Assembly (NCBI GenBank): GCA_021797915.1
Contig: JAJZYT010000005.1
Coordinates: forward strand, 10,043-74,042
DNA from: Thermoplasmata archaeon
GTDB taxonomy: Archaea; Thermoplasmatota; Thermoplasmata; Thermoplasmatales; GCA-001856825
Reading direction: 5' to 3'
Length of the DNA: 64,000 nt
Shown: positions 3,771 to 33,786 of the stretch, piece by piece
How positions within the stretch are numbered: position 1 is the first letter of the stretch
Layout: the number at the start of each line of letters is the position of its first letter
Translations under genes and position numbers: made by a program
The notes under the pieces: model-generated
The model's input: the letters and a program-made list of their open reading frames with translations, nothing else
Told to the model about the DNA's origin: nothing
The model's database searches: none

Positions 3771-4304
3771 TCACCCTTTCCAGAGCCCTATTGCGAGGCC
3801 TATGAGGAAGAGTATAATAGATAGAGTGAGTTGAACTGCCCCGAACTTCACCGTTGAGATGTACGTGAGAAAGAGGGAAGACCATTTGTGAAACTCATAA
3901 GTGAGAGATATCTTTGGAACGAATGCTATTCCAACGTATCCTGCTATCACAATTCCCACTATCCCAAGGATCAGTGCCGTAAACCCTTTCTTCAACCCAA
4001 GACCAATGAGCAACCCCGATGCAAATGTCAGTATGATCGTGATTATCTGGTTATAGGCAACTCCGTCGATTGAGCCGGAGACAGAGACGGACTGCGAGGT
4101 ATTCAGGGAATAGAGTGAGTAAGCAGGAAGATAGGCGAGCGGAGGTTGGGAGGAGGGACTAAAAGTGTTAGTCAATGAGTGGTAAAGGAAAACAGCTGCA
4201 ATGGAGGAGACTATCGAGACTGCGACAAGAACAGCAGCAAGATCCAGGCGGGACTTCTCACCAATGGAAGAGGGAATGGTAGGAGAGGATTCAGGCGCAG
4301 TCAC
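3771..4304 (-). CDS. Membrane protein; its C-terminal module is paralogous to 30910-31206
   Basis: The C-terminal ~95 aa align with ORF 30910-31206 (FVPKISLTYE...ILFLIGLAIGLWKG versus FVPKISFSYE...ILFLIGLAIGLWKG), and the nucleotide differences are synonymous. Confidence 0.65.
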   Translation of the reverse strand: MTAPESSPTIPSSIGEKSRLDLAAVLVAVSIVSSIAAVFLYHSLTNTFSPSSQPPLAYLPAYSLYSLNTSQSVSVSGSIDGVAYNQIITIILTFASGLLIGLGLKKGFTALILGIVGIVIAGYVGIAFVPKISLTYEFHKWSSLFLTYISTVKFGAVQLTLSIILFLIGLAIGLWKG

Positions 4305-7156: not shown

Positions 7157-7230
7157 TGAATATTCTCCTCTTGTCTATAAGAACTTTAATCTCTTTCCCT
7201 ATTAATATTTCTTTGCTTACAATTTCTAAA

Positions 7231-7305
7231 CGGGCCCGCGGGGATTTGAACCCCGGATCATTGGCTTAGAAGGCCAATGCCTTATCCAGACTAGGCCACG
7301 GGCCC
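7231..7305 (-). tRNA. tRNA-Arg (anticodon TCT)
   Basis: The reverse complement folds as a cloverleaf: GGGCCCG acceptor, anticodon stem TTGGC/GCCAA with loop CTTCTAA, and T-arm CGGGG-TTCAAAT-CCCCG. No CCA is encoded. Confidence 0.9.
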
Positions 7306-7428
7306 ATGTTTGGCTCCAATGGAAATGGCTAGCGTATTATTATTTTTTTGCAGACTCTCTTGAGAGGTATTCCCTTCAATTCCTTTCTGCATCGTTTGGT
7401 TTTATAAGGTTCGTATGATTTCGTTCAG

Positions 7429-8019: not shown

Positions 8020-8390
8020 TCTCTAATTCCGAAACATCGGTGAATGATATATACTGAGAGTAAATTTAGAGATGGTAGTCCCAGGATGGCCATCGCCAGA
8101 AATGGTGAGGAAAGTCCTCCCTCCAGGTAGCAATCTGGATAAAACCCTGGTCGAGAGACCTGCTTCGCCTCAAAAGAAATGACACAGCTTCGGTTAAGGA
8201 TGAACCTCTCGGAGGGGACGTTCCCGAAAAATATGATGAGACAGAGGAGGAGAGATAGGAGCAAGCTCAAGCAGTTCCGAAGACAGCTATCACAGGAACA
8301 GGTAGAGCGCACGAGTCAAATGCCATCAACCCGGAAGGGGTAACAGAAGGAGGCTTACTCGGGACAACCTCTACTTTCCAGACCGGAGCT

Positions 8391-16681: not shown

Positions 16682-16898
16682 AGTCAGGTTAAAGCTGAAA
16701 GGAACCGAGGTAGACAACATCATAAGGGCAATAAATGCGGATCACTCGAGATACATAAAGTGTAAGAAGACGAAAGATGGGTATTCATGTTCCGTGACAG
16801 GTCAAACGAACGACGTGAGGAAGACCATCAACGAGTTCTTGGAATCTATCTTATACCTAGAAAAGGTATCCGAAAGCCTTGATGCCCGAGTGGGGTAG
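16671..16898 (+). CDS. Pcc1-like (KEOPS subunit-like) small ORF, not in the ORF track; the start codon is unresolved
   Basis: The frame is open from 16659 to the TAG at 16896-16898: LEIEVRLKLKGTEVDNIIRAINADHSRYIKCKKTKDGYSCSVTGQTNDVRKTINEFLESILYLEKV. This beta-alpha-beta-beta-alpha pattern resembles archaeal Pcc1. There is no in-frame ATG/GTG/TTG near the 5' end. Confidence 0.35.
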   Translation: MEIEVRLKLKGTEVDNIIRAINADHSRYIKCKKTKDGYSCSVTGQTNDVRKTINEFLESILYLEKVSESLDARVG

Positions 16899-16958
16899 TT
16901 TGGATTATCCTAGAGGCCTGCGGAGCCTCAGACCTGGGTTCGAATCCCAGCTCGGGCG
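16884..16958 (+). tRNA. tRNA-Arg (anticodon GCG)
   Basis: Acceptor GCCCGAG/CTCGGGC, anticodon stem GAGGC/GCCTC with loop CTGCGGA, and T-arm CTGGG-TTCGAAT-CCCAG. No CCA is encoded. Confidence 0.85.
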
Positions 16959-17181
16959 TCCCACCTTGATCCTGATCTTCCGGAAAACCAAACCAGAACC
17001 GGTAGAAGAGAGTAACCTTATTTTGAAGAACCTCAACAGTCAGAATTATTTGCTTTCAATTGGTGCGCTCTGTAAACAAGAATTGGGACCGTCATTGAAG
17101 GAGCATATCCACGAATGAATAAATGGAATGCATTGCGAATGAAGGTTCCAGAAAACTCCAGAATTCAAGGTCTCTCAACAA

Positions 17182-18144
17182 CTACCTTCCGACAGATATC
17201 ACAATTGTGTCTCCCCTTGAGACTTTTTCAAAAACTGCAGATACTGTGACCGTGCCTGACTCGGACCCTGTCCTCTTAACAATCAACGGATCAATGACTT
17301 TAAATCCATCCATCATCCTTTTCTTGACTTCAGCGTCAGTTCCTCTTTGAACCACACAGTATATCTTCAGGAAGTCCACGTTAGAAGAAATGAGCAGCTT
17401 AATTGGATCTTTATCAAATTGATAACGGTAATTCAAGAAGAGATTCTTTTCGTCCATTTTATGCAGCGGTTTATTCAAAGTAATTGTGAGTCCTGTCTGT
17501 CCTGCAAAGGAGTATACAATGTTTTCCTTCGACAAAGGGATACTTCCAGTCTCATCGAAGGCAATCAAATTTATCTGATCAGGAGAATCAACGACTCCAA
17601 CTGGAAGTGGCAGAGGCATCCCAGTTACAATTTTAAGCCCTGAATTTACAACGTGGGCGAATACTGCAACAGAAGGTACCTCTTTAGTGAAATCGAAAGC
17701 TACGGACATCGTGCTCACCTTCGTGTCTTGTGCGGATGGGTCTTCTGTTTTCCTACTATAGTAGTATGAACTTCCTTCTGTCCTTCGGTTGATGAGATCG
17801 AGTTTCAATAGCTTCTTGATGTTCCTGTGGATTGTAGTAGGACCTATCGGTCTGCCATAGACATTTTCGAGCATTGACTTTATATCTTTGAACCTAAATT
17901 CCTTCCCATTCATTCTCTTGTAAACGATCTCCTGAAGAGAATCTGCGATGGAATTGTTTGAGATTGAATTAAGTCGACTGTCATATCCAATGACAACATC
18001 TTTTCTAAAAAAGTGCGACGTGCCGTCTGAATGAATGAATCGAGCATAATGGTAAGTTTTTCCCTTGGACTTTGTGACATAATTTATCTTTCTCGCCTGC
18101 CCGCCGCACACTTGGCACTCGCTTTGAATGGATTTTCGGCCCAT
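17182..18144 (-). CDS. Cassette 1, protein B: CCHH zinc-knuckle + winged-helix-like + beta-rich C-terminal domain; family unknown
   Basis: CQVCGG..x..FIHSDGTSHFF, then FRFKDIKSMLE..TIHRNIKKLLKLDLINRR. It aligns end to end with 29726-30658. Confidence 0.75.
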   Translation of the reverse strand: MGRKSIQSECQVCGGQARKINYVTKSKGKTYHYARFIHSDGTSHFFRKDVVIGYDSRLNSISNNSIADSLQEIVYKRMNGKEFRFKDIKSMLENVYGRPIGPTTIHRNIKKLLKLDLINRRTEGSSYYYSRKTEDPSAQDTKVSTMSVAFDFTKEVPSVAVFAHVVNSGLKIVTGMPLPLPVGVVDSPDQINLIAFDETGSIPLSKENIVYSFAGQTGLTITLNKPLHKMDEKNLFLNYRYQFDKDPIKLLISSNVDFLKIYCVVQRGTDAEVKKRMMDGFKVIDPLIVKRTGSESGTVTVSAVFEKVSRGDTIVISVGR

Positions 18145-18189: not shown

Positions 18190-19161
18190 TCATACGACTG
18201 ACTTATCGAGAGTCCACTTGAGCTGCAGGACCGAAAATGCCTCTACGTCTCTTAATGAAATGCTGTGAATATACTTCCATTTTGGGGATTCACTCTCCGC
18301 CAAGCGATTCGTAAGGTCTTGGGTTTCATTTCTGGAGGAAGAGGTTAAGGACGCAATCAAATTGATCGGGTTGTTACCAGAAATGGTAAAATCAAGTCTC
18401 GTCATGTTAGTGGCCGACCAAATTGCGAAGTTCTGTTTCGTTTCTGGGACATAATATTCAATTCTCATTTTTCTTCTCTCTCCTGGCAAGAGGGGAATTG
18501 GGAATCTCATAAGCACCCTCTTCTCCAGAGGAGTATCTTCAAGAAGAGTTACTTTTAGATCCTTCGAATTAGAAAAGTCGAATGCCTTGTATTTCAATTC
18601 TGTGAAAGTTATACCAGTATCCGCAGTAATTCTGAATGGCATAAAGGAAATAGACCATGCGTGATCATTCCTAATCTCATACGAAAACGAGTGCTTTCTG
18701 AACATGCCGTCATTTAGTACATCTCCTAGGAAAATTTCAATTGTATCGAATACGAAGCTAAGTCTTTTCTTATCCATAGTATTGATATAAAAAAGACTCC
18801 TCCCTCTCTTTTGCTTCTCTACTATTCCTGCTTTTTCTAATTTGTCTAGCGCATACTGTATTGAAGTGAATCCTAAGTTTGAATATTTTTGAGCAAGATA
18901 TTTTCTAACGTCGATTATTTGAAAGTCTCCGGAATTAAAGGTCTGAGAGTTTAGTAAACCTATTAACGCATCTTCAAGTTCTCCCTTTTTTATCATCCGA
19001 GAACCTGCTGAGTTTATGTTTAAATAATGAACTTTTCCTTCATGATGGTACACTAAGTATTCATAACGATTTCCTTTTCGATTCGTCGTCCAGGAATGAG
19101 TGACCCTCGCTTTGAAACCGCATATGGGACAAACTCCCTCTTCAAAAGAACGCACCATCAA
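18190..19161 (-). CDS. Cassette 1, protein A: CCHH zinc-knuckle + winged-helix-like + beta-rich C-terminal domain; family unknown
   Basis: EEGVCPICG..YHHEGKVHY, then ..IQYALDKLEKAGIVEKQKRGRSLFY. It aligns end to end with 28712-29668. Confidence 0.75.
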   Translation of the reverse strand: MMVRSFEEGVCPICGFKARVTHSWTTNRKGNRYEYLVYHHEGKVHYLNINSAGSRMIKKGELEDALIGLLNSQTFNSGDFQIIDVRKYLAQKYSNLGFTSIQYALDKLEKAGIVEKQKRGRSLFYINTMDKKRLSFVFDTIEIFLGDVLNDGMFRKHSFSYEIRNDHAWSISFMPFRITADTGITFTELKYKAFDFSNSKDLKVTLLEDTPLEKRVLMRFPIPLLPGERRKMRIEYYVPETKQNFAIWSATNMTRLDFTISGNNPINLIASLTSSSRNETQDLTNRLAESESPKWKYIHSISLRDVEAFSVLQLKWTLDKSVV

Positions 19162-19224: not shown

Positions 19225-19320
19225 CTATCCGCCACCAAAGCTTGCCCCGCTCAAAGCATGGGCAATTGCGAAGTAAGCGACGCTTCCAAAAGCAATCACC
19301 AAAGATATCAGTTCAAACAT
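19225..19320 (-). CDS. Cassette 1 micropeptide: 31 aa, single TM helix, C-terminal GGG (not in the ORF track as such)
   Basis: MFELISLVIAFGSVAYFAIAHALSGASFGGG*. A G-rich SD-like GGGGG lies ~9 nt upstream of the ATG. A positional and compositional counterpart is at 28555-28656. Confidence 0.5.
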   Translation of the reverse strand: MFELISLVIAFGSVAYFAIAHALSGASFGGG

Positions 19321-19371: not shown

Positions 19372-19393
19372 GAGTTCGAAAGTTTTCGAACTC
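19372..19393. promoter_or_regulatory. Cassette 1 palindromic operator candidate
   Basis: GAGTTCGAAA-gt-TTTCGAACTC, with 10-bp perfect arms, lies 52 nt upstream of the micropeptide ATG. It matches the cassette 2 site with compensatory arm changes. Confidence 0.55.
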
Positions 19394-19477: not shown

Positions 19478-19675
19478 CCGCGCAGCAAGAGTATGAGGTA
19501 TCAAGGAATGGTAATATAGCTGCATTAGCGGTAGGAGAGGATCTAGGGCTTGGGAAAGGCATCTGTCGCGGGAACTTATCCCCCTCCCACGACGGAATGC
19601 CTACCCATAACTTGTGGTCTAATAGCAATAGTCTCAAGAAGCTAAGTTGGACTATGGTTTTAGACTTAAGGGTAG
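19478..19675 (+). ncRNA. Candidate structured RNA segment inside the cassette 1 spacer (strand uncertain)
   Basis: Nested helices by eye: 19601-06/19670-75 (CTACCC/GGGTAG), 19617-22/19660-65 (GTCTAA/TTAGAC) and 19628-33/19650-55 (ATAGTC/GACTAT). Also 19478-86 pairs with 19519-31, and 19558-68 with 19590-601. Long ORFs on both strands suggest the lack of stops is compositional. Confidence 0.2.
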
Positions 19676-19852
19676 CTTGGGAAATGTCAAACCCTACCGG
19701 TTTAGCGGATAAAACGAGAATAAAATCAAAACCGTTTATCGTCAAGCCCATGAAAGGTGTAGAAAGAAGCGATTTGATATACCAAAATTTTAAGACTGGG
19801 GAGGTTGGGTCAAGGGACCTGGAATTGCGGAATACAAAGGAGGAAAGAGAAC

Positions 19853-20287
19853 TTGGCAATTGACGAAGTAGTGTTTGCAAATCGTAAACTGCTGAGAGTA
19901 CTGGGAGAGGATAACGAAAGATATAAAGATGACACGAAACTCATGGTTTCGCTGCACAGCATCGAGTTCAGTCATAGAAAAGAAGGCTATCTAGAAGTTG
20001 CAAATGACGTGTTCTTTTCAAACCTCATTTATTTACTGTACATTAAGAAAATAGTTGCTGGAGCGGACCTTGAGACCGCTAAAGAAAAGAACAAGTCTGT
20101 CTTGATCAAAGAACTAGAAAGGAAGAAATCCTTGGTTCTGAAAAGGTCCTCTGTTCGTTCTACAGATGCTCTTGACTGCGGGAAAACTGACAGAAAACTG
20201 GTACTGTTAAATAAGGCGATTTTCATCCTGAAGCGAGATGAGAAAGAAACTGCATTTGGCGGCTTTGATTTTTCCAGGATAGTTTAG
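19853..20287 (+). CDS. Cassette 1, protein X: helical ~144 aa protein of unknown family
   Basis: A TTG start at 19853 is preceded by AGGAGG at 19839-19844. It is paralogous to 27633-28040 (VANDVFFSNLIYLLYIKK versus VARNIFISGLPYMLYFKN; ETAKEKNKSVLIKELE versus EKAKEIAKKVLIKHIE). Confidence 0.6.
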   Translation: MAIDEVVFANRKLLRVLGEDNERYKDDTKLMVSLHSIEFSHRKEGYLEVANDVFFSNLIYLLYIKKIVAGADLETAKEKNKSVLIKELERKKSLVLKRSSVRSTDALDCGKTDRKLVLLNKAIFILKRDEKETAFGGFDFSRIV

Positions 20288-26966: not shown

Positions 26967-27524
26967 TCAACTTAAAGTGCCGGTTATGGAGCCAATATAT
27001 CCATTGTAAGTAATGTCAATCTGCAGACCTGAAAGTTTCACTGGGGCTCCAGTGGAGTGAAAAACTATGTAAATTATTGCCTGAGATTGGATGTTCGTTG
27101 CACCGTTTGCGGGAATCGCTCCGTTAGAAGACCAAGTGTCTCCGCTGCTCGTGAAAGTGTTCATATAAAGGACTGTCCCATCTGGATTTGTAATTGTAAC
27201 ATTTTCAACTGTCCACCCAACACCGGTGGGTTTGTCACTTCCATTTATCATTTGCATGTGAAATTTTGATGGGTCACTCAGCTTAGAAGGAGTTGCTAAG
27301 TTCAACATTAGCGTTGTCGTATTTGTTCCAAAGGATTCTTCTGTTATGCTTCCAATTAATGGTGAGGGAGTCGTATAGTGTGAGACGAGAATATAAACGG
27401 TTGTTGCCAGTATAACTGTGACTGCAACCATGAGTATAGTGGCGATGACTGGAGATACAGCTTCATCTTCCGCGATTTGAAGTGGCCAAATTTTCTTATG
27501 TGTTTTCCTAACGACATCCTTCAT
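26967..27524 (-). CDS. Archaeal type IV pilin-like protein (class III signal peptide, DUF1628-like N-terminus)
   Basis: ..EDEAVSPVIATILMVAVTVILATTVYILV.., followed by a Thr/Asn-rich beta-type domain. Confidence 0.65.
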   Translation of the reverse strand: MKDVVRKTHKKIWPLQIAEDEAVSPVIATILMVAVTVILATTVYILVSHYTTPSPLIGSITEESFGTNTTTLMLNLATPSKLSDPSKFHMQMINGSDKPTGVGWTVENVTITNPDGTVLYMNTFTSSGDTWSSNGAIPANGATNIQSQAIIYIVFHSTGAPVKLSGLQIDITYNGYIGSITGTLS

Positions 27525-27632: not shown

Positions 27633-28040
27633 TTATGCGCCCCTGAGTATAGTGAGAGCACGTTCGAGTAATTCCAGTCTGATTTCAATACATCTTAATT
27701 CAGTAGGCCCATCGCAGATCAATTCCAAATCTTTGATTCTTTCCCTTCTGTCTTCGATATGCTTTATGAGTACTTTTTTGGCAATCTCTTTGGCCTTTTC
27801 AAAATCATCACTGACACGTCCAATGCTTAGATTCTTGAAGTAAAGCATATATGGAAGCCCTGAAATGAAAATGTTTCGGGCTACTCTATAATAACCCACC
27901 GAGGAATGATCAAATTTCACTTTACTGAAGGAGATTAACAGTTTGAGGTTCTCCCTTTTCCTCCCAGCAGCTCTATTGACTTCAAGGTCATCAAAAAATT
28001 TCGCACTTTCAATGATTTTATTTCTGCACTGCTCTTCCAC
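27633..28040 (-). CDS. Cassette 2, protein X': helical 135 aa paralog of 19853-20287
   Basis: GTG start with an AGAAGG SD-like element upstream. The alignment to X is described under that feature. Confidence 0.6.
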   Translation of the reverse strand: MEEQCRNKIIESAKFFDDLEVNRAAGRKRENLKLLISFSKVKFDHSSVGYYRVARNIFISGLPYMLYFKNLSIGRVSDDFEKAKEIAKKVLIKHIEDRRERIKDLELICDGPTELRCIEIRLELLERALTILRGA

Positions 28041-28331: not shown

Positions 28332-28358
28332 AGAGAGAGCCCAAATCGGGCTCTCTCT
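28332..28358. other. Perfect 11-bp stem / 5-nt loop hairpin in the cassette 2 spacer
   Basis: AGAGAGAGCCC-aaatc-GGGCTCTCTCT. No T-tract follows on either strand. Confidence 0.6.
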
Positions 28359-28482
28359 TCGATGGCCCCTCCGCTTGAGTGATGAATCAACAGTTCTGCA
28401 TAGACTGCTGAAAGTATTTGCTGTCTTCCCAATCATTACTCTACTATACGTCATACTCTGGTTGGTCTTTAATACCACCAGA

Positions 28483-28503
28483 GAGTTAGAATAACTTTCT
28501 AAC
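28483..28503. promoter_or_regulatory. Cassette 2 palindromic operator candidate
   Basis: AGTTAGAA-taact-TTCTAACT, 10 bp upstream of a TATA box and ~51 nt upstream of the micropeptide ATG. Confidence 0.55.
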
Positions 28504-28513
28504 TTCCCGTTAG

Positions 28514-28521
28514 TATAAAAA
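28514..28521 (+). promoter_or_regulatory. TATA box candidate for the cassette 2 micropeptide/A'/B' transcript
   Basis: TATAAAAA lies 34 nt upstream of the ATG at 28555. A GAGGGAG SD-like element follows. Confidence 0.5.
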
Positions 28522-28554
28522 TATCAGACTGTATTTGTAATTCGAGGGAGAGTA

Positions 28555-28656
28555 ATGATTGAAATATTTACTCTGGCAATCGGACTCGCTTTGAGCGTCT
28601 ATTTTACGTTGATAAACCCCATTATCGAGGGAGGAGTTGCTGCAGGTGGAGGATAA
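28555..28656 (+). CDS. Cassette 2 micropeptide: 33 aa, single TM helix, C-terminal GGG (below the ORF-track cutoff)
   Basis: MIEIFTLAIGLALSVYFTLINPIIEGGVAAGGG*. The SD-like GAGGGAG is 5-11 nt upstream. Confidence 0.5.
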   Translation: MIEIFTLAIGLALSVYFTLINPIIEGGVAAGGG

Positions 28657-28711
28657 GTTCTTCTCTCTTTTTCATTTTCTAACTTTTAATATGCGTTGGG
28701 ATTGTTTGTAG

Positions 28712-29668
28712 ATGACTTATTCTAAAGAAGAGGGGATCTGTCCATTCTGCAAGAGAAAGTCATTCATAACCAGGAAGTGGGTTCTGAACAACTATAAGAC
28801 TAGGTATAGTTACACCATTTATCATCACGATGGGTCCGTCCACTATTCCAATACAACCCCGAATAATGCCAGAACATTCAAGAAGGGGATTATAGAAAAG
28901 GTTTTGATAGAAACCATAAACTCAGAAAATTTCAAAGATGGATTGTTTCTGACGCGGGACATCAAGAAGAGACTCCAAAAGGAGTATCAGGAAATAAGCT
29001 CAGACACTCTTAGAGATAATCTCCACAGGCTAGTTGAGATTGGCATGCTGGAGAAAGTCAGAAAAGGGAGGCAGATCTACTTCCTCAATGCCATATTTAA
29101 GGACAGACTCAGCTATGTTTTCGACTCAGTTAAGTTCTCCCTCGGCGATACAAATGAAGATTCACTATTCAGGAGCCATGTTTCTGTCTATAACATTAGA
29201 AATGACAAAACCTGGCCACTGTATTTTCTGCCGTACCGAATTTTTGGTGATACAGACATTATCTATGATAAAATGAGATTTAAGGCAATTGACTTGACAA
29301 ATAATGAGGACCTAAAGGTTCTACTTATTGAAGACAATCCAAGGGAAAAGAGAATTTTGATAAGACTGAATAGACCTCTCTTCCCGAATGAAAACATGAA
29401 AGTAAGGTTTGATTATGATTGGCAAGAACCTAGGCAGAATTTTGTTTTTACAGCTGCAACTCATATGAACGCATTTGAGATCGTTCTCTCCAGCAACTAT
29501 CCCCTCAAGATTCAGGCATCCCGAACTATTTCTACTATGAACGAGCTCAAGGATCTGTCAAACGAAGTTGTAGGAACCAGGACCAAAAAGTGGAGATTTG
29601 TATATTCCGTGAAGTTGAAATCAATAAGACCATTTTCTGTTCTCCAGTTTAGGTGGAAAAGGACTTGA
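28712..29668 (+). CDS. Cassette 2, protein A': paralog of 18190-19161
   Basis: Matched blocks: EEGICPFCK..YHHDGSVHY; KAIDLTNNEDLKVLLIEDNPREKRILIR versus KAFDFSNSKDLKVTLLEDTPLEKRVLMR; FSVLQFRW versus FSVLQLKW. Confidence 0.75.
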   Translation: MTYSKEEGICPFCKRKSFITRKWVLNNYKTRYSYTIYHHDGSVHYSNTTPNNARTFKKGIIEKVLIETINSENFKDGLFLTRDIKKRLQKEYQEISSDTLRDNLHRLVEIGMLEKVRKGRQIYFLNAIFKDRLSYVFDSVKFSLGDTNEDSLFRSHVSVYNIRNDKTWPLYFLPYRIFGDTDIIYDKMRFKAIDLTNNEDLKVLLIEDNPREKRILIRLNRPLFPNENMKVRFDYDWQEPRQNFVFTAATHMNAFEIVLSSNYPLKIQASRTISTMNELKDLSNEVVGTRTKKWRFVYSVKLKSIRPFSVLQFRWKRT

Positions 29669-29725
29669 AAGTTTTCGAGATATTGTCGGCAACATTCAAT
29701 ATTGTTGGCAAAATGTGTGATTCAG

Positions 29726-30658
29726 ATGCCTAGAAAACCAGCAGAGTCTTTGTGCAAAATTTGTGGGGCAAATGCAACAGTGAAGATCAACTACGCAACG
29801 GGGAGTGGAGGAACAGTTTACTTGTACGAGATTTACACCCACAAGAACGGGACGGTTCATTACTTCAGGCCGGGAAAAGTTTTACAAAAACGGGATGCGT
29901 TCAGTGACTTTGAAGCGACGCTAAGAACCAAGATGAACGATGGAGAGTACAGGTTCAAAGATATAAAGAAGCTTTTTGAATCATTTCGCGGCTCATCAGC
30001 AAGCAACACCATGGTGCAGAGATACATTGAGAAAGGGATGAGGGCAAAACTTATCAGGAAGTCAGTCGAAGACGGGATGATACTTTACTTTAAGGGGAAC
30101 CAGAGAGATTCGCCCAAAGTCGTTAAGATTCAAGAAACATCTGTATCTTATCATATTTCAGACTCAGCAGTGGCAATGTCAATTCTTCTCAAGTTCTTAA
30201 ACGAAGGTGAAAGCCCACTCAACAGGATCCCAATAACTATACCTACGGGGATCATAGACACTATCAGTGAACTTAATATTGAATCGTTCGACAAATTTGG
30301 CAAGATATCGGAGGGAAACATGGAGATAGCATTTTCTTTTACCGGACAGACCGGGATTGGAGTAGGTTTGAGGAGATCCCTGGGTCCTTCTGAGAGTGAT
30401 TTCCTTTTCGTCACCAGTCGATTCACTTTTTCCGAGCATTCACTGAAGTTTGCACTACCACTTGACACAGGTTCACTCAGAATTCATATTACCAAGGAAT
30501 GGGAAAAACCTGTGCACGTCAGAAAACGTTTATTGGATGGTATAAAGGAAACCAACCCCGATAGTGTAAGGAAGGGGTTCTTAAGCGACGGCCTGAGTTT
30601 TGCCGAAGTCGAATTTGGCAAGTCTAGCAAGGGAGAGGCAGTTGTAGTCTCTTGGTAA
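29726..30658 (+). CDS. Cassette 2, protein B': paralog of 17182-18144
   Basis: The start is taken at MPRKPAESLCKICG (compare MGRKSIQSECQVCG). Matched blocks: YRFKDIKKLFE versus FRFKDIKSMLE; FTGQTGIGVGL versus FAGQTGLTITL; VRKRLLDGIK versus VKKRMMDGFK. Confidence 0.75.
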   Translation: MPRKPAESLCKICGANATVKINYATGSGGTVYLYEIYTHKNGTVHYFRPGKVLQKRDAFSDFEATLRTKMNDGEYRFKDIKKLFESFRGSSASNTMVQRYIEKGMRAKLIRKSVEDGMILYFKGNQRDSPKVVKIQETSVSYHISDSAVAMSILLKFLNEGESPLNRIPITIPTGIIDTISELNIESFDKFGKISEGNMEIAFSFTGQTGIGVGLRRSLGPSESDFLFVTSRFTFSEHSLKFALPLDTGSLRIHITKEWEKPVHVRKRLLDGIKETNPDSVRKGFLSDGLSFAEVEFGKSSKGEAVVVSW

Positions 30659-30909: not shown

Positions 30910-31206
30910 ATGATCTTGGATTGGACAACCATACTGAATTTTGCCCTGACTTTCGTCGTAGGACTGCTGTTCGGGCTGGCCATTAAGAAGGGACTGGTGG
31001 CGTTCGTGCTTGCACTCGTTGGCTTCGTCATTGCTGGTTATGTCGGGTTGACTTTCGTTCCTAAGATTTCGTTCAGTTATGAAGTAACTAAGTTTATCAC
31101 TTATGTTGTAACTTATATCCACGACGTTAAGCTAGGGGCAATTGCAGTATCTCTGACAGTTATACTGTTTCTGATAGGCCTTGCAATTGGGCTCTGGAAG
31201 GGATAA
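30910..31206 (+). CDS. Small 3-TM membrane protein, paralog of the C-terminal module of 3771-4304
   Basis: 98 aa with an identical C-terminal ILFLIGLAIGLWKG. Confidence 0.65.
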   Translation: MILDWTTILNFALTFVVGLLFGLAIKKGLVAFVLALVGFVIAGYVGLTFVPKISFSYEVTKFITYVVTYIHDVKLGAIAVSLTVILFLIGLAIGLWKG

Positions 31207-31321: not shown

Positions 31322-32080
31322 TTGAAGAAGGTAATAGAAGAGGAAGCAGTTTCCGAAGTCGTGGGGACCATATTGGTTCTTGCAATAACAGTTGTTTTGT
31401 TCTCTGCAGTTTTTGTTTACGCCCAACAGTTTCCCCTCGCAACTACCTCAAAACAGATCACCGTAGTTCAGCAGCTGTCCTACAATATAGATACACACAC
31501 ACTATTCGAGAATCTTACGGAGAAAACGGGAAGCATCCTATTGAGAAGCGATACGTATTTTGTGGTCCTCATCGACAACCACGAATACTCGACAAACCTT
31601 GCAAACATGCGAGTTAAAAGTCCCTATGAAAATTCCTCTTCGTTATTCGAGCCCGGAGATACAATAACCTGGAACAGTTCGTATGTCGGTGCGACTGTAA
31701 GAGAAAATTCCTCGATCAACTCTATGCTTCTTTATAGACCCTCAAACCAAGTCCTGTGGCAATCCGTGAATAATGTCTCTAGCGGGTTATCCATTTCAGT
31801 CTTCTATGTGACTCCTTCCCCGATAAAAGCAAATGAAACTTTCACTATTTTTGTTCAGGTAAACACTTTTGACCCTAATGGGACAACAGCATATCTGAAT
31901 CTCACTTCACTCTATGAGACGGCTTACAACAAGTCGATGAACATCTATAGTCTGTCAGAAAATAAATTAAATTTCTACTTTGAGGGAATTTCACCTTCCT
32001 CCCTTCCAAGCTCCTCAATGGCAAAGTTGAATGTAACCTGTGATGGCATTTCTGTGAATTCTGAGATTAACCTATCTTGA
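31322..32080 (+). CDS. Archaeal type IV pilin-like protein (class III signal peptide)
   Basis: TTG start. The N-terminus reads ..EEEAVSEVVGTILVLAITVVLFSAVFVYA, and a sequon-rich beta domain follows. Confidence 0.6.
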   Translation: MKKVIEEEAVSEVVGTILVLAITVVLFSAVFVYAQQFPLATTSKQITVVQQLSYNIDTHTLFENLTEKTGSILLRSDTYFVVLIDNHEYSTNLANMRVKSPYENSSSLFEPGDTITWNSSYVGATVRENSSINSMLLYRPSNQVLWQSVNNVSSGLSISVFYVTPSPIKANETFTIFVQVNTFDPNGTTAYLNLTSLYETAYNKSMNIYSLSENKLNFYFEGISPSSLPSSSMAKLNVTCDGISVNSEINLS

Positions 32081-32241: not shown

Positions 32242-32823
32242 GTGCTAGCCGAGCTTGAGGTTCTTGGAGGAATTGGAACTGTTTACGTTCTCGGAGTATT
32301 TGCCTGGACTTTCTTGAAATTCTCAAAAATGAGAAGGCAACTTCTGAAGGCGCCGGTACTCTTTTTTGTGTTTTCTTTGATTTCGATGCTATTCGTTGCA
32401 CTCCTTGGGTCCGATGAATTTTATTTCCTCCCTCTCGTCGCCACCGAGTTTCTGCTGATGTTAACAATCTTCTACAGCTACCTCAAAACGAATGCAATCT
32501 TTCTAAGTGCCCTGGTACTTTCTGCTGGCTCCACAACAGGGAACTGGTTCGTTCCGTACTTCGAAGACATCCTTATGATTCTCTCGATCTACTTCTCACT
32601 GTACATCACGGGGTCATTCTTACAGGCTAAATCTCAGGAAAGTAAAGGCAGTACCATTGTGATGGGGTCGTTCATACTCATGGACTTGTCCCTGGTCCTG
32701 GAAGCATTCTATATTCTGAAGTTCAACAGTTCGTTTATGGAGATCGGTGTTTCGTTATTCGTCGTCTCGGTAATTCTATTCTTGCTTCCTTTTCTTTTGG
32801 GAGGATCATCAAGGAATGCGTGA
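32242..32823 (+). CDS. Polytopic membrane protein (193 aa)
   Basis: Five to six hydrophobic spans. It overlaps the downstream wHTH gene by 8 nt. Confidence 0.55.
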   Translation: MLAELEVLGGIGTVYVLGVFAWTFLKFSKMRRQLLKAPVLFFVFSLISMLFVALLGSDEFYFLPLVATEFLLMLTIFYSYLKTNAIFLSALVLSAGSTTGNWFVPYFEDILMILSIYFSLYITGSFLQAKSQESKGSTIVMGSFILMDLSLVLEAFYILKFNSSFMEIGVSLFVVSVILFLLPFLLGGSSRNA

Positions 32824-33195: not shown

Positions 33196-33498
33196 ATGGT
33201 GAGCGAAGGGAGAATTATGGAGAGCGCGACAGGACCTGTTGTGACTGCGATGGTACATCTAAAAGCAGATACGAGCAAGATCGAGACTATCAGCGCTAGC
33301 CTTTCAGAACTAAACTTCATCGAGGACATATACTTAGTTACAGGAAATTGGGATATGATCCTGAAAGTCAGGTTTCCCGACGTCAACCAGATGAGAAATT
33401 TTTTAGTGAAAGATCTGAGGAAAGTGGATGGTATAAAGGATTCCTACACGTCGATGGTTATAAGTATATTCAAAGATAGGGGGGTCAAATTCCAGTGA
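33196..33498 (+). CDS. Stand-alone Lrp/AsnC ligand-binding (RAM) domain protein
   Basis: ..VVTAMVHLKADTSKIETISASLSELNFIEDIYLVTGNWDMILKVRF.. The start is probably the internal MESATG. Confidence 0.65.
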   Translation: MVSEGRIMESATGPVVTAMVHLKADTSKIETISASLSELNFIEDIYLVTGNWDMILKVRFPDVNQMRNFLVKDLRKVDGIKDSYTSMVISIFKDRGVKFQ

Positions 33499-33786
33499 GT
33501 GATTTATATGGACGAAATGTCGCAAATTTTGTTGGATACCATAAGAATGCTTGATGAATTGATTTCGGACTATTCGATACCCAGAAATATTAGGAAGAAC
33601 ATTCAGGCCGCAAAGTCGAGGTTGTCGCAGGATAAAGGCAACCTAGACGTGAGGGCTGCTACTTCCATTTCGACGCTAGATGAAATAGTAAATGACCCAA
33701 ACACCCCAGGTCACGCAAGGACCCTGATCTATACGATAATGGGCAAGCTTGAGATACTTCAGAAGAAAGCTTCCTCAATTCACTGA
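33499..33786 (+). CDS. UPF0147-family archaeal protein
   Basis: IPRNIRKNIQAAKSRL...VRAATSISTLDEIVNDPNTPGHARTLIYTIMGKLE matches the UPF0147 pattern. Confidence 0.7.
   Translation: MIYMDEMSQILLDTIRMLDELISDYSIPRNIRKNIQAAKSRLSQDKGNLDVRAATSISTLDEIVNDPNTPGHARTLIYTIMGKLEILQKKASSIH

Follow-up and report, generated by a model that had tools for sequence, protein, structure and literature searches.

Which gene products, if any, are encoded by two very short open reading frames (sORFs) that each precede a pair of related genes, here called A and B, in an uncultivated archaeon? The question is raised by a stretch of 64,000 nucleotides (64 kb) of contig JAJZYT010000005.1 (Thermoplasmata archaeon, assembly GCA_021797915.1, positions 10,043 to 74,042), hereafter the window, which carries two cassettes of this kind, sORF1-A2-B2 on the plus strand and sORF2-A1-B1 on the minus strand. 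Comparison with related loci indicates that the sORF opens a conserved module of three genes, sORF-A-B, and that sORF1 and sORF2 are very probably translated, functional micro-proteins. With regard to their role, the reading that we favour, with a probability of about 0.4 for the whole chain of events, is that the membrane micro-protein would be both the target and the partner of A/B. The two sORFs and their Shine-Dalgarno (SD) elements are:

28555-28656, plus strand: sORF1, 33 codons, clade-1 micro-protein MIEIFTLAIGLALSVYFTLINPIIEGGVAAGGG
28544-28552, plus strand: SD-like element GAGGGAGAG of sORF1, its last nucleotide 2 nt from the ATG
19225-19320, minus strand: sORF2, 31 codons, clade-2 micro-protein MFELISLVIAFGSVAYFAIAHALSGASFGGG
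19332-19325, minus strand: purine-rich SD GGGGGAAT of sORF2, 4 nt from the ATG

The first-pass annotation of this DNA had placed two short ORFs, each with a purine-rich SD, at these positions, and both could be confirmed: they start with ATG and have a TATA box and a purine-rich SD on their 5' side. Its distance of 55-63 nt to gene A holds for sORF1, which ends 55 nt before A2, and depends on the start codon of A1 in the case of sORF2, being 63 nt if A1 starts with the TTG at 19161 and 66 nt if it starts with the ATG at 19158, the latter appearing the better match to the family consensus. The peptides had also been regarded as unannotated, but family members do appear in public annotations of metagenome-assembled genomes (MAGs) under the name 'hypothetical protein', one example being EQB66219.1 from I-plasma, and the exact peptides of the window are present in 71 (sORF1) and 30 (sORF2) public contigs. 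The functional micro-proteins of archaea are to our knowledge little explored, and we know of no genetically encoded peptide-regulator pair described in these organisms; literature searches returned nothing on the sORF-A-B locus.

Conservation and selection of the micro-proteins

A search for short ORFs upstream of A homologues in other genomes, proposed as a check on the initial observation, found them in most loci. Scanning of GTDB species genomes for A yielded 23 loci, 22 of them with an intact A gene, and 20 of these 22 contain a similar sORF on the same strand, 43-83 nt 5' of A. A further set of seven distant loci (A 21-36% identical) came from a full hidden Markov model (HMM) search and contig look-ups; six of them show a hydrophobic sORF of 30-36 codons directly 5' of A, encoding peptides such as MITMFSEIFGILLGIVAIGLAIYSMASSGGGVIFGR, MFELIATLAIAFATVAYAGYYAITQTVGGGSIGGGL and MWAIIGMVLVIAAGIYYTVVNSMGGSAFFGGH, and the seventh locus type has a 12-codon ORF, MVNTTPGIWIGG, which corresponds to the tail of the peptide only. 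Altogether, the sORF stands beside A in at least 26 loci, at a distance of 41-84 nt over all loci, and the family peptides measure 28-36 residues. Those of the GTDB loci form two clades, parallel to the two clades of A proteins. Genomes hold two or three cassettes, which are paralogous and differ in the clade of their peptide. Clade 1 is invariably of 33 codons, with the pattern M[IFV]EIF..G.A.S.YYT.INP...GG[IV][AS]xGGG, and clade 2 invariably of 31 codons, with the pattern MFE[IL]IA..LS...T[YF]FAIV[RKH][SP]LGGA[FY][MV]G[GSN][GA]. In every locus, an HMM of the family matches at the place of the sORF (E 1e-16 to 4e-4, among 13,896 six-frame segments), with no further match anywhere else in the window or the loci.

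The pattern of substitutions is that of a protein-coding gene. In clade 1 the mean synonymous difference (pS) is 0.69 vs a non-synonymous difference (pN) of 0.29, and in clade 2 the values are 0.56 vs 0.24; synonymous change is saturated in both clades, and in the closest, least saturated pairs the ratio of non-synonymous to synonymous rates (omega, or dN/dS) is 0.06-0.17. Variable columns at codon positions 1, 2 and 3 number 24, 17 and 32 of 33 codons in clade 1 and 20, 14 and 27 of 31 codons in clade 2, and the sORF alignments of either clade contain no frame-breaking indels. Because of this conservation, the fixed length, the codon-position pattern and a dN/dS well below 1, the sORFs are to be regarded as encoding peptides that are translated and kept by purifying selection, which strongly supports the original proposal of a translated peptide rather than noise. 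For a family of micro-proteins, the comparative evidence of translation and selection is unusually clear.

Loss of the sORF is seen in a few loci. In locus L023, A and B have been deleted, with only the first 48 codons of A left, and the sORF carries an in-frame stop. In I-plasma (L009) and a relative (L005, YP5.bin4), the A-proximal TATA has been lost along with sORF1 and its SD, and the upstream palindrome and TATA described below are kept together with A2 and B2; an unrelated 55-codon ORF (3846-4013 in both L005 and L009) replaces the clade-1 sORF there and overlaps the start of A.

The peptide family and its glycine-rich tail

A pairwise BLASTP comparison of the sORF1 and sORF2 peptides detects no similarity, and their homology is visible only via the family alignment or the HMM. 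Of the resemblance described at first, namely a shared length, hydrophobic profile and mid-helix aromatics, what stands is a length fixed per clade (33 or 31 codons), a hydrophobic stretch and a conserved aromatic pair. Across the family, M1, G27 and G31 (sORF1 numbering) are nearly invariant, and the two glycines form a G-x3-G motif. The N-terminus follows the consensus M-[FIV]-[ED], with an acidic residue 3, and opens into a hydrophobic helix stretch of about 18-20 residues, a membrane-spanning length, with the aromatic pair at its C-terminal end. A polar or basic break follows, N-P in clade 1 and R/K/H then S/P in clade 2. Kyte-Doolittle maxima over 18 residues reach about 2.0 in both window peptides, and the net charge is -2 for sORF1 and -1 for sORF2 (from -3 to 0 across the family, and from -2 to 0 everywhere except in L035); this hydropathy and low net charge fit one membrane-spanning helix.

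Within the window, a C-terminal GGG is found in only 2 of 222 ATG-initiated ORFs of 25-60 aa in six frames, which are sORF1 and sORF2. The conservation of this terminus, as initially claimed, holds for clade 1 and for part of clade 2, but not for the whole family, in which it is the G-x3-G motif that is kept: the terminal triplets seen are GGG, GGA, GSG, GNG, GGR, FGR, GGL, GGH, GAE and LGN. This variation speaks against a chemistry dependent on a free Gly-Gly at the C-terminus, and it bears directly on the early suggestion that the peptides are Gly-tail substrates for C-terminal modification. Such substrates could serve a conjugation like that of ubiquitin or the small archaeal modifier proteins (SAMPs), or could be precursors of bacteriocins or of ribosomally synthesised and post-translationally modified peptides (RiPPs) that would be modified or exported. 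The Gly-rich C-terminus itself would suit such a role, as would a weak CvpA-like match of the 98-aa protein encoded downstream of B2, which lies below threshold (E 0.005, 17 bits vs a cut-off of 29). However, ubiquitin-like and SAMP modifiers are beta-grasp proteins, about 70-100 aa long, whose C-terminal GG never varies and is activated by an E1-like enzyme, whereas the sORF peptides (31-33 aa in the window clades) are helical-hydrophobic and end variably. Among the 20 neighbouring genes scanned, none is E1-like, codes for a modification enzyme or a C39-peptidase, or is a dedicated ABC gene, the remaining window lying outside the scan for E1-like genes, and the nearest ABC transporter, about 4 kb off, is of the ABC-2 type without C39. 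Precursors of class II bacteriocins and RiPPs consist of a leader and a core peptide and are accompanied by a modification enzyme or a C39-ABC exporter and an immunity gene, whereas the neighbours here are A, B, X (a gene described below), pilins and membrane or metabolic proteins. Considering all this, a Gly-tail substrate is hardly to be believed.

The window peptides have no match in Pfam or NCBIfam, and the sORF1 peptide has none in PHROGs. When 23 members of the family were compared with Pfam, nothing rose above noise (best E 0.029), the matches being to KdpF, the InaF-motif and the SoxE_N anchor at E 0.03-0.9, with 1-2 members each and far below threshold, and a profile search of the PDB with the peptide family gave nothing better than E 3.2. 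By these comparisons the peptides constitute a previously uncharacterised family, outside every known family tested. They share with glycine-zipper (GxxxG) small membrane proteins and with KdpF a hydrophobic helix and a G-x3-G packing motif, but the sORF-A-B module encodes no membrane complex as a partner for them. A pilin-like peptide was considered and rejected: the sORFs begin directly with the hydrophobic stretch and have no Pilin_N match, unlike the true pilins of the neighbourhood and archaeal type IV pilins in general (Pilin_N / DUF1628), which carry a class III signal peptide with a basic n-region and a cleavage site ahead of the hydrophobic stretch. GlyGly-CTERM-like and signal-peptide readings were likewise rejected on sequence features.

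Promoters and a putative operator

Alignment of the upstream regions across loci gives a conserved order of elements, which runs from a palindrome, through about 10 nt, to a TATA box and, after about 20 nt more, to the SD and the sORF, followed by a T-run and a half-site fused to a second TATA. In the window these elements are:

28485-28503, plus strand: putative operator GTTAGAA-TAAC-TTTCTAAC, directly 5' of the transcription factor B recognition element (BRE) and TATA of sORF1, conserved in the alignment
28514-28523, plus strand: TATA box TATAAAAATA of sORF1, conserved as GTATAAAAATA / GTATCGAAATA in all loci
28668-28672, plus strand: T5 run after the sORF1 stop, a probable terminator of the sORF transcript
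28676-28683, plus strand: half-site TTTCTAAC, fused to the A2-proximal TATA
28684-28692, plus strand: TATA TTTTAATAT, centred 24 nt 5' of the A2 ATG, probably a leaderless A2 promoter
19374-19391, minus strand: putative operator variant GTTCGAA-AACT-TTCGAAC, 5' of sORF2
19364-19354, minus strand: TATA-like element GTGTCGAAATA of sORF2, from the upstream-region alignment
19213-19206, minus strand: half-site TTTCTAAC between sORF2 and A1, with a T-run alongside
19186-19178, minus strand: TATA TTTTTATAC, centred 24 nt 5' of the A1 ATG

The palindrome AGTTAGAA-N4-5-TTCTAACT (GTTAGAA-N4-5-TTCTAAC) is perfect, measures 18-20 bp and abuts the BRE/TATA of the sORF. The GTTAGAA type is unique in the window, where shuffled sequences lead one to expect 0 matches, and the palindrome occurs once per related locus, invariably at the sORF promoter; the variant GTTCGAA-N4-TTCGAAC is found in cassette 1 of the window and in L019, L021 and L036. 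Scanning metagenomes for AGTTAGAA-N4-5-TTCTAACT returned at least 120 stretches, and among the matches listed none encodes the peptide, A or B, these being chance matches in unrelated metagenomes. The 12-codon ORF MVNTTPGIWIGG (L028 832-870; L029 419-457), with its G-x3-G tail, also lies behind a recognisable palindrome and TATA. Transcription of sORF1 is predicted to start near 28544, with a spacing as in archaeal promoters, and the SD is conserved as GAGGGA or GGGGGAT in 20 loci and is gone where the sORF is lost (L005, L009).

Other genes of the window have their TATA 25-35 nt 5' of the ATG, which is leaderless spacing, and because the A TATA at 24 nt stands near that spacing, gene A probably has its own leaderless promoter, the sORF forming a transcription unit apart from it, led by the SD and about 130 nt long. 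This anatomy bears on the possibility of a regulatory leader peptide, also raised at first, in which the sORF would act in cis as an upstream ORF and the act of translation alone would tune A/B through attenuation or coupling. Such a leader would account for the location of the sORF on the same strand as A and at a constant short distance, and in the I-plasma lineage, where A has no TATA of its own, A must be transcribed from the sORF promoter. However, attenuation leaders are characterised by co-transcription, alternative RNA structures and an unconstrained peptide, whereas here a conserved TATA stands before A at leaderless spacing, there is a T-run after the sORF stop, folding of both sORF mRNA regions shows no excess over shuffles (z +0.17 and -0.10), and purifying selection acts on the amino-acid sequence over its whole length. 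A leader peptide is thus very unlikely. A search of Rfam over both cassettes gave no match at gathering thresholds or at E values up to 10.

Two further elements lie in the intergenic regions between the sORFs and the divergent X genes. Between X2 and sORF1 (28332-28386, plus strand; also in L002-L010) there is a GC-rich hairpin, with arms at 28332-28342 and 28348-28358 that covary between species, followed by an invariant TGGCCCCTCC(G/T)C (28363-28374) and then RTGA, and CCCCTCC is anti-SD-like; this region has no Rfam match and no conserved ORF, and the hairpin is kept even in loci without the sORF. In cassette 1, a non-coding island G(A/G)GGAGGGGGAT-N3-4-TTCC (19571-19590, minus strand) is present in L012-L021, about 250 nt 5' of sORF2. 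Long ORFs across the X/sORF intergenic regions were rejected as genes, since they are not conserved.

The A and B proteins

The two genes that follow the sORF encode predicted DNA-binding proteins of a common architecture:

28712-29668, plus strand: A2, C2H2 zinc (Zn) ribbon, winged helix (about residues 60-126) and beta-sandwich (about 135-318)
29726-30658, plus strand: B2, built like A and paralogous to it; the ORF begins with a TTG at 29702
18190-19158, minus strand: A1, clade-2 paralogue of A2 (40% identity), ATG at 19158, alternative TTG at 19161
17182-18144, minus strand: B1, paralogue of B2

The ATG of B2 at 29726 fits the family N-terminus MxRK...CKxCG. Proteins A (about 318 aa) and B (about 310-320 aa) align by hhalign with a probability of 99% (E 3e-18, 255 columns), and by this comparison they are paralogues. 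Residues C10, C13, H39 and H44 of A are invariant and make up a C2H2 Zn-ribbon. Pfam and NCBIfam give A only sub-threshold matches to winged helix-turn-helix (wHTH) domains and no family, and a protein search with A found 27 relatives, all of them in MAGs of Thermoplasmata/Thermoplasmatales such as the acid-mine-drainage I-plasma. Three parts can be told apart in the AlphaFold2 (AF2) model of A (pLDDT 79), namely the Zn-ribbon, a winged helix built of H60-69, H81-88, H97-109 and a beta wing, and, at 135-318, a domain of beta-structure only. Foldseek places nearest to this domain the N-terminal beta-sandwich of M1 aminopeptidase/LTA4H and the luminal domain of Ost1/ribophorin I (E about 2e-5, TM-score about 0.35-0.40 on the query).

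The HMM search that reached the distant A loci also detected the beta-domain of A/B, which carries the motif YDWxEP, on the C-terminal side of class III nucleotide-cyclase and caspase domains in other proteins. These fusions indicate a sensor-type module with exchangeable outputs, and the A/B beta-sandwich can be considered a candidate for a new sensor domain, common to cyclase- and caspase-fused proteins. It has no Pfam model (about residues 135-318 of A2, window positions 29114-29668); the cyclase- and caspase-fused proteins measure 340-540 aa and come from other metagenomes (P0076-P0099).

A possible feedback module at the membrane

In the reading that we favour, A and B would act as a probable heterodimer, bind the palindrome at the BRE/TATA of the sORF and control its transcription. 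The micro-protein would then insert into the membrane, probably with its N-terminus outside and its C-terminus inside because of the acidic residue 3 and the R/K/H at position 21. From there, the Gly-rich G-x3-G tail may contact the beta-sandwich sensor domain of A/B, which would close a feedback loop in which the micro-protein serves as a membrane-tethered anti- or co-regulator or is neutralised in a toxin-antitoxin-like manner. Among the roles suggested by the first-pass annotation, a signal or anti-regulator for A/B is the one that, as we infer, fits best. By analogy, sORF-A-B is closest to known feedback modules built of a peptide and its regulator or of a small membrane protein. Examples of small membrane proteins with an effect on a regulator are MgrB, which acts on PhoQ, and PspB/C of the Psp response. 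Like them, the sORF product would span the membrane once and be expressed under the control of the very regulator that receives its feedback; unlike it, they work through membrane sensor kinases or PspA and not on soluble proteins of the Zn-ribbon/wHTH kind, and there is no sequence relationship, the interaction in sORF-A-B being a proposal of ours.

Several points weigh against this proposal. Both the contact of the peptide with A/B and the binding of A/B to the palindrome are steps that we infer, and in A and B no recognition-helix substitution consistently tracks the switch from GTTAGAA to GTTCGAA. Clade 1 is without the basic residue on which the argument for the topology rests. L005 and L009 retain A2/B2 without sORF1, so that the partnership of peptide and A/B is not obligatory, and the L028/L029 lineage has only the 12-codon version, a tail without a helix, which implies that the membrane anchor may be dispensable. 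In addition, no sORF stands beside the one cyclase-fused homologue of the beta-domain that was examined.

A somewhat unlikely alternative to feedback is that the micro-protein is an effector only, that is, the regulated output of A/B with no signal back to them, such as a membrane-active peptide (a glycine-zipper pore or toxin, or a holin-like factor) that leads to dormancy or abortive infection, or a protectant against membrane stress. The putative operator at the sORF promoter would be expected of such an output, a G-x3-G tail with a hydrophobic helix is typical of oligomerising membrane peptides, and the A/B beta-domain is common to caspase- and cyclase-fused proteins, an architecture frequent in conflict systems. 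The first-pass annotation had considered a type-I-toxin-like peptide, and membrane peptides of type I and type V toxin-antitoxin systems, such as Hok, TisB, Fst and GhoT, are likewise hydrophobic single-helix peptides (30-60 aa) under tightly controlled expression. Nevertheless, the sORF module is vertically inherited with a fixed chromosomal synteny, being neither patchy nor island-like, and its neighbours are two large predicted DNA-binding proteins. PADLOC and PHROGs give no meaningful match of the module to a defence system or phage family, and no relatives of A were found in viral contigs. With respect to an antisense or overlapping small RNA antitoxin for the sORFs, Rfam returned no match up to E 10, archaeal antisense promoters not being predictable by these means. 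An output alone would also leave unexplained why each paralogous A/B pair has its own peptide clade. If the sORF product were just a regulated small membrane protein, it would be a useful addition to catalogues of small proteins, with no conceptual advance.

The glycines of the tail and the adjacent regulator recall the streptococcal quorum-sensing pairs of short hydrophobic peptide (SHP) and Rgg regulator, of the RRNPP type, and thus a secreted pheromone, an improbable alternative. The precursor would be exported and cleaved, and its Gly-rich C-terminal fragment re-imported, where it would bind the beta-sandwich of A/B and activate the sORF promoter in an autoinduction loop, the paralogous cassettes being orthogonal channels. 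In both systems the gene of a short hydrophobic peptide, of about 20-35 codons, is the immediate neighbour of the gene for a cytoplasmic helix-turn-helix (HTH) regulator, the presumed operator of that regulator is at the peptide promoter (here presumed from the palindrome only), several paralogous cassettes occur per genome, and the peptide has a conserved C-terminal part ending in Gly residues. Indeed, the C-terminal half is the best-conserved part of the sORF peptide, the 12-codon version retains only the tail PGIWIGG, and the tails GGIIVGGR, GIWIGG and GGVAAGGG resemble the mature SHPs DIIIIVGG, DILIIVGG and ETIIIIGGG (PMC3679016). This resemblance may, however, be convergent or trivial, both being hydrophobic with Gly. 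SHP precursors have a basic N-terminus, and the mature pheromone consists of the C-terminal 8-9 residues with a conserved initial D/E (PMC3679016), whereas the sORF peptides have neither a basic N-terminus (no K/R in M-[FIV]-[ED]) nor a conserved D/E before the tail, where cleavage would be expected, and their charge distribution suggests a cytoplasmic C-terminus. The regulators differ too, being two tandem Zn-ribbon/winged-helix/beta-sandwich proteins without a tetratricopeptide repeat (TPR) domain and unrelated to Rgg, in which an HTH is followed by a C-terminal TPR-like domain. Peptide and regulator are co-oriented here, not divergent or convergent, the host is an archaeon, and no exporter, protease or peptide importer equivalent to PptAB, Eep and Ami is linked to the module. 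That sORF-A-B would be a first archaeal peptide-signalling circuit, SHP/Rgg-like, with a new class of heterodimeric receptor (Zn-ribbon/wHTH/beta-sandwich) for the Gly-rich C-terminal ligand and with auto-induction of the peptide gene, is a reading of equally low probability; if true, the beta-sandwich would be a general peptide-sensing domain, wired also to cyclase and caspase outputs in other archaea.

In any case, a defined putative operator of 18-20 bp and two uncharacterised Zn-ribbon/wHTH/beta-sandwich proteins make up, together with the micro-protein, a compact and testable system in uncultivated acidophilic (acid-mine-drainage) Thermoplasmata.

Genomic neighbourhood and inheritance

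Each cassette is transcribed divergently from a gene named X:

27633-28040, minus strand: X2, 135 aa, divergent from cassette 2, conserved in the close family only
19805-20287, plus strand: X1, homologue of X2, divergent from cassette 1

Since X is found in the close family only, the core module is reduced to sORF-A-B. The context of cassette 2 reads DAO, OCD, pilin, X2, divergent sORF-A2-B2, the 98-aa membrane protein and a second pilin, and continues downstream with a polytopic membrane protein and a wHTH protein, whereas that of cassette 1 reads MFS, MoCF, X1, divergent sORF-A1-B1, tRNA-Arg and g15722 (with a match to EF-Tu domain 2). In five or more genomes the two cassettes lie on either side of a central block of about 10 kb and point away from it, and the region is chromosomal, syntenic throughout the lineage and vertically inherited. 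An integrated mobile element, which the tRNA-Arg beside B1 and the low GC content could have suggested, was rejected, as the whole neighbourhood is syntenic across the lineage.

The tRNA-Arg(GCG) gene lies at 16883-16961 (plus strand), 220 nt past the end of B1, and with its synteny conserved it shows no sign of having been an integration site. Further upstream are a tRNA-Arg(TCT) gene (7230-7306, minus strand) and the archaeal RNase P RNA (8074-8369, plus strand, 151 bits).

Cassette 2 is flanked by type IV pilin genes at 26967-27524 (minus strand) and 31322-32080 (plus strand), with Pilin_N matches and class III signal peptides, and nearby are the genes for the 98-aa protein, with 3-4 transmembrane segments (30910-31206), and for the polytopic membrane protein (32242-32823). 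This neighbourhood of pilin and membrane-protein genes is conserved as far out as L022 and L023, the remotest of the Thermoplasmatales loci, and in L023 (1-800) the membrane-protein and pilin genes downstream of the deleted A/B are still intact. At 33196-33786 (plus strand), two small proteins of 100 and 95 aa are 76-100% identical, and thus very strongly conserved, between loci where A is only about 35-55% identical; in PHROGs the former has no match and the latter matches only a family of unknown function.

A third cassette is present in one MAG (L035). In another contig (L036; ENA ERZ27233560, k141_984052), which has a ParB_N gene, the end of one A/B-family gene is followed by a tandem sORF-A-B-A array with the GTTCGAA variant of the palindrome, an array that is possibly plasmid-borne or duplicated.

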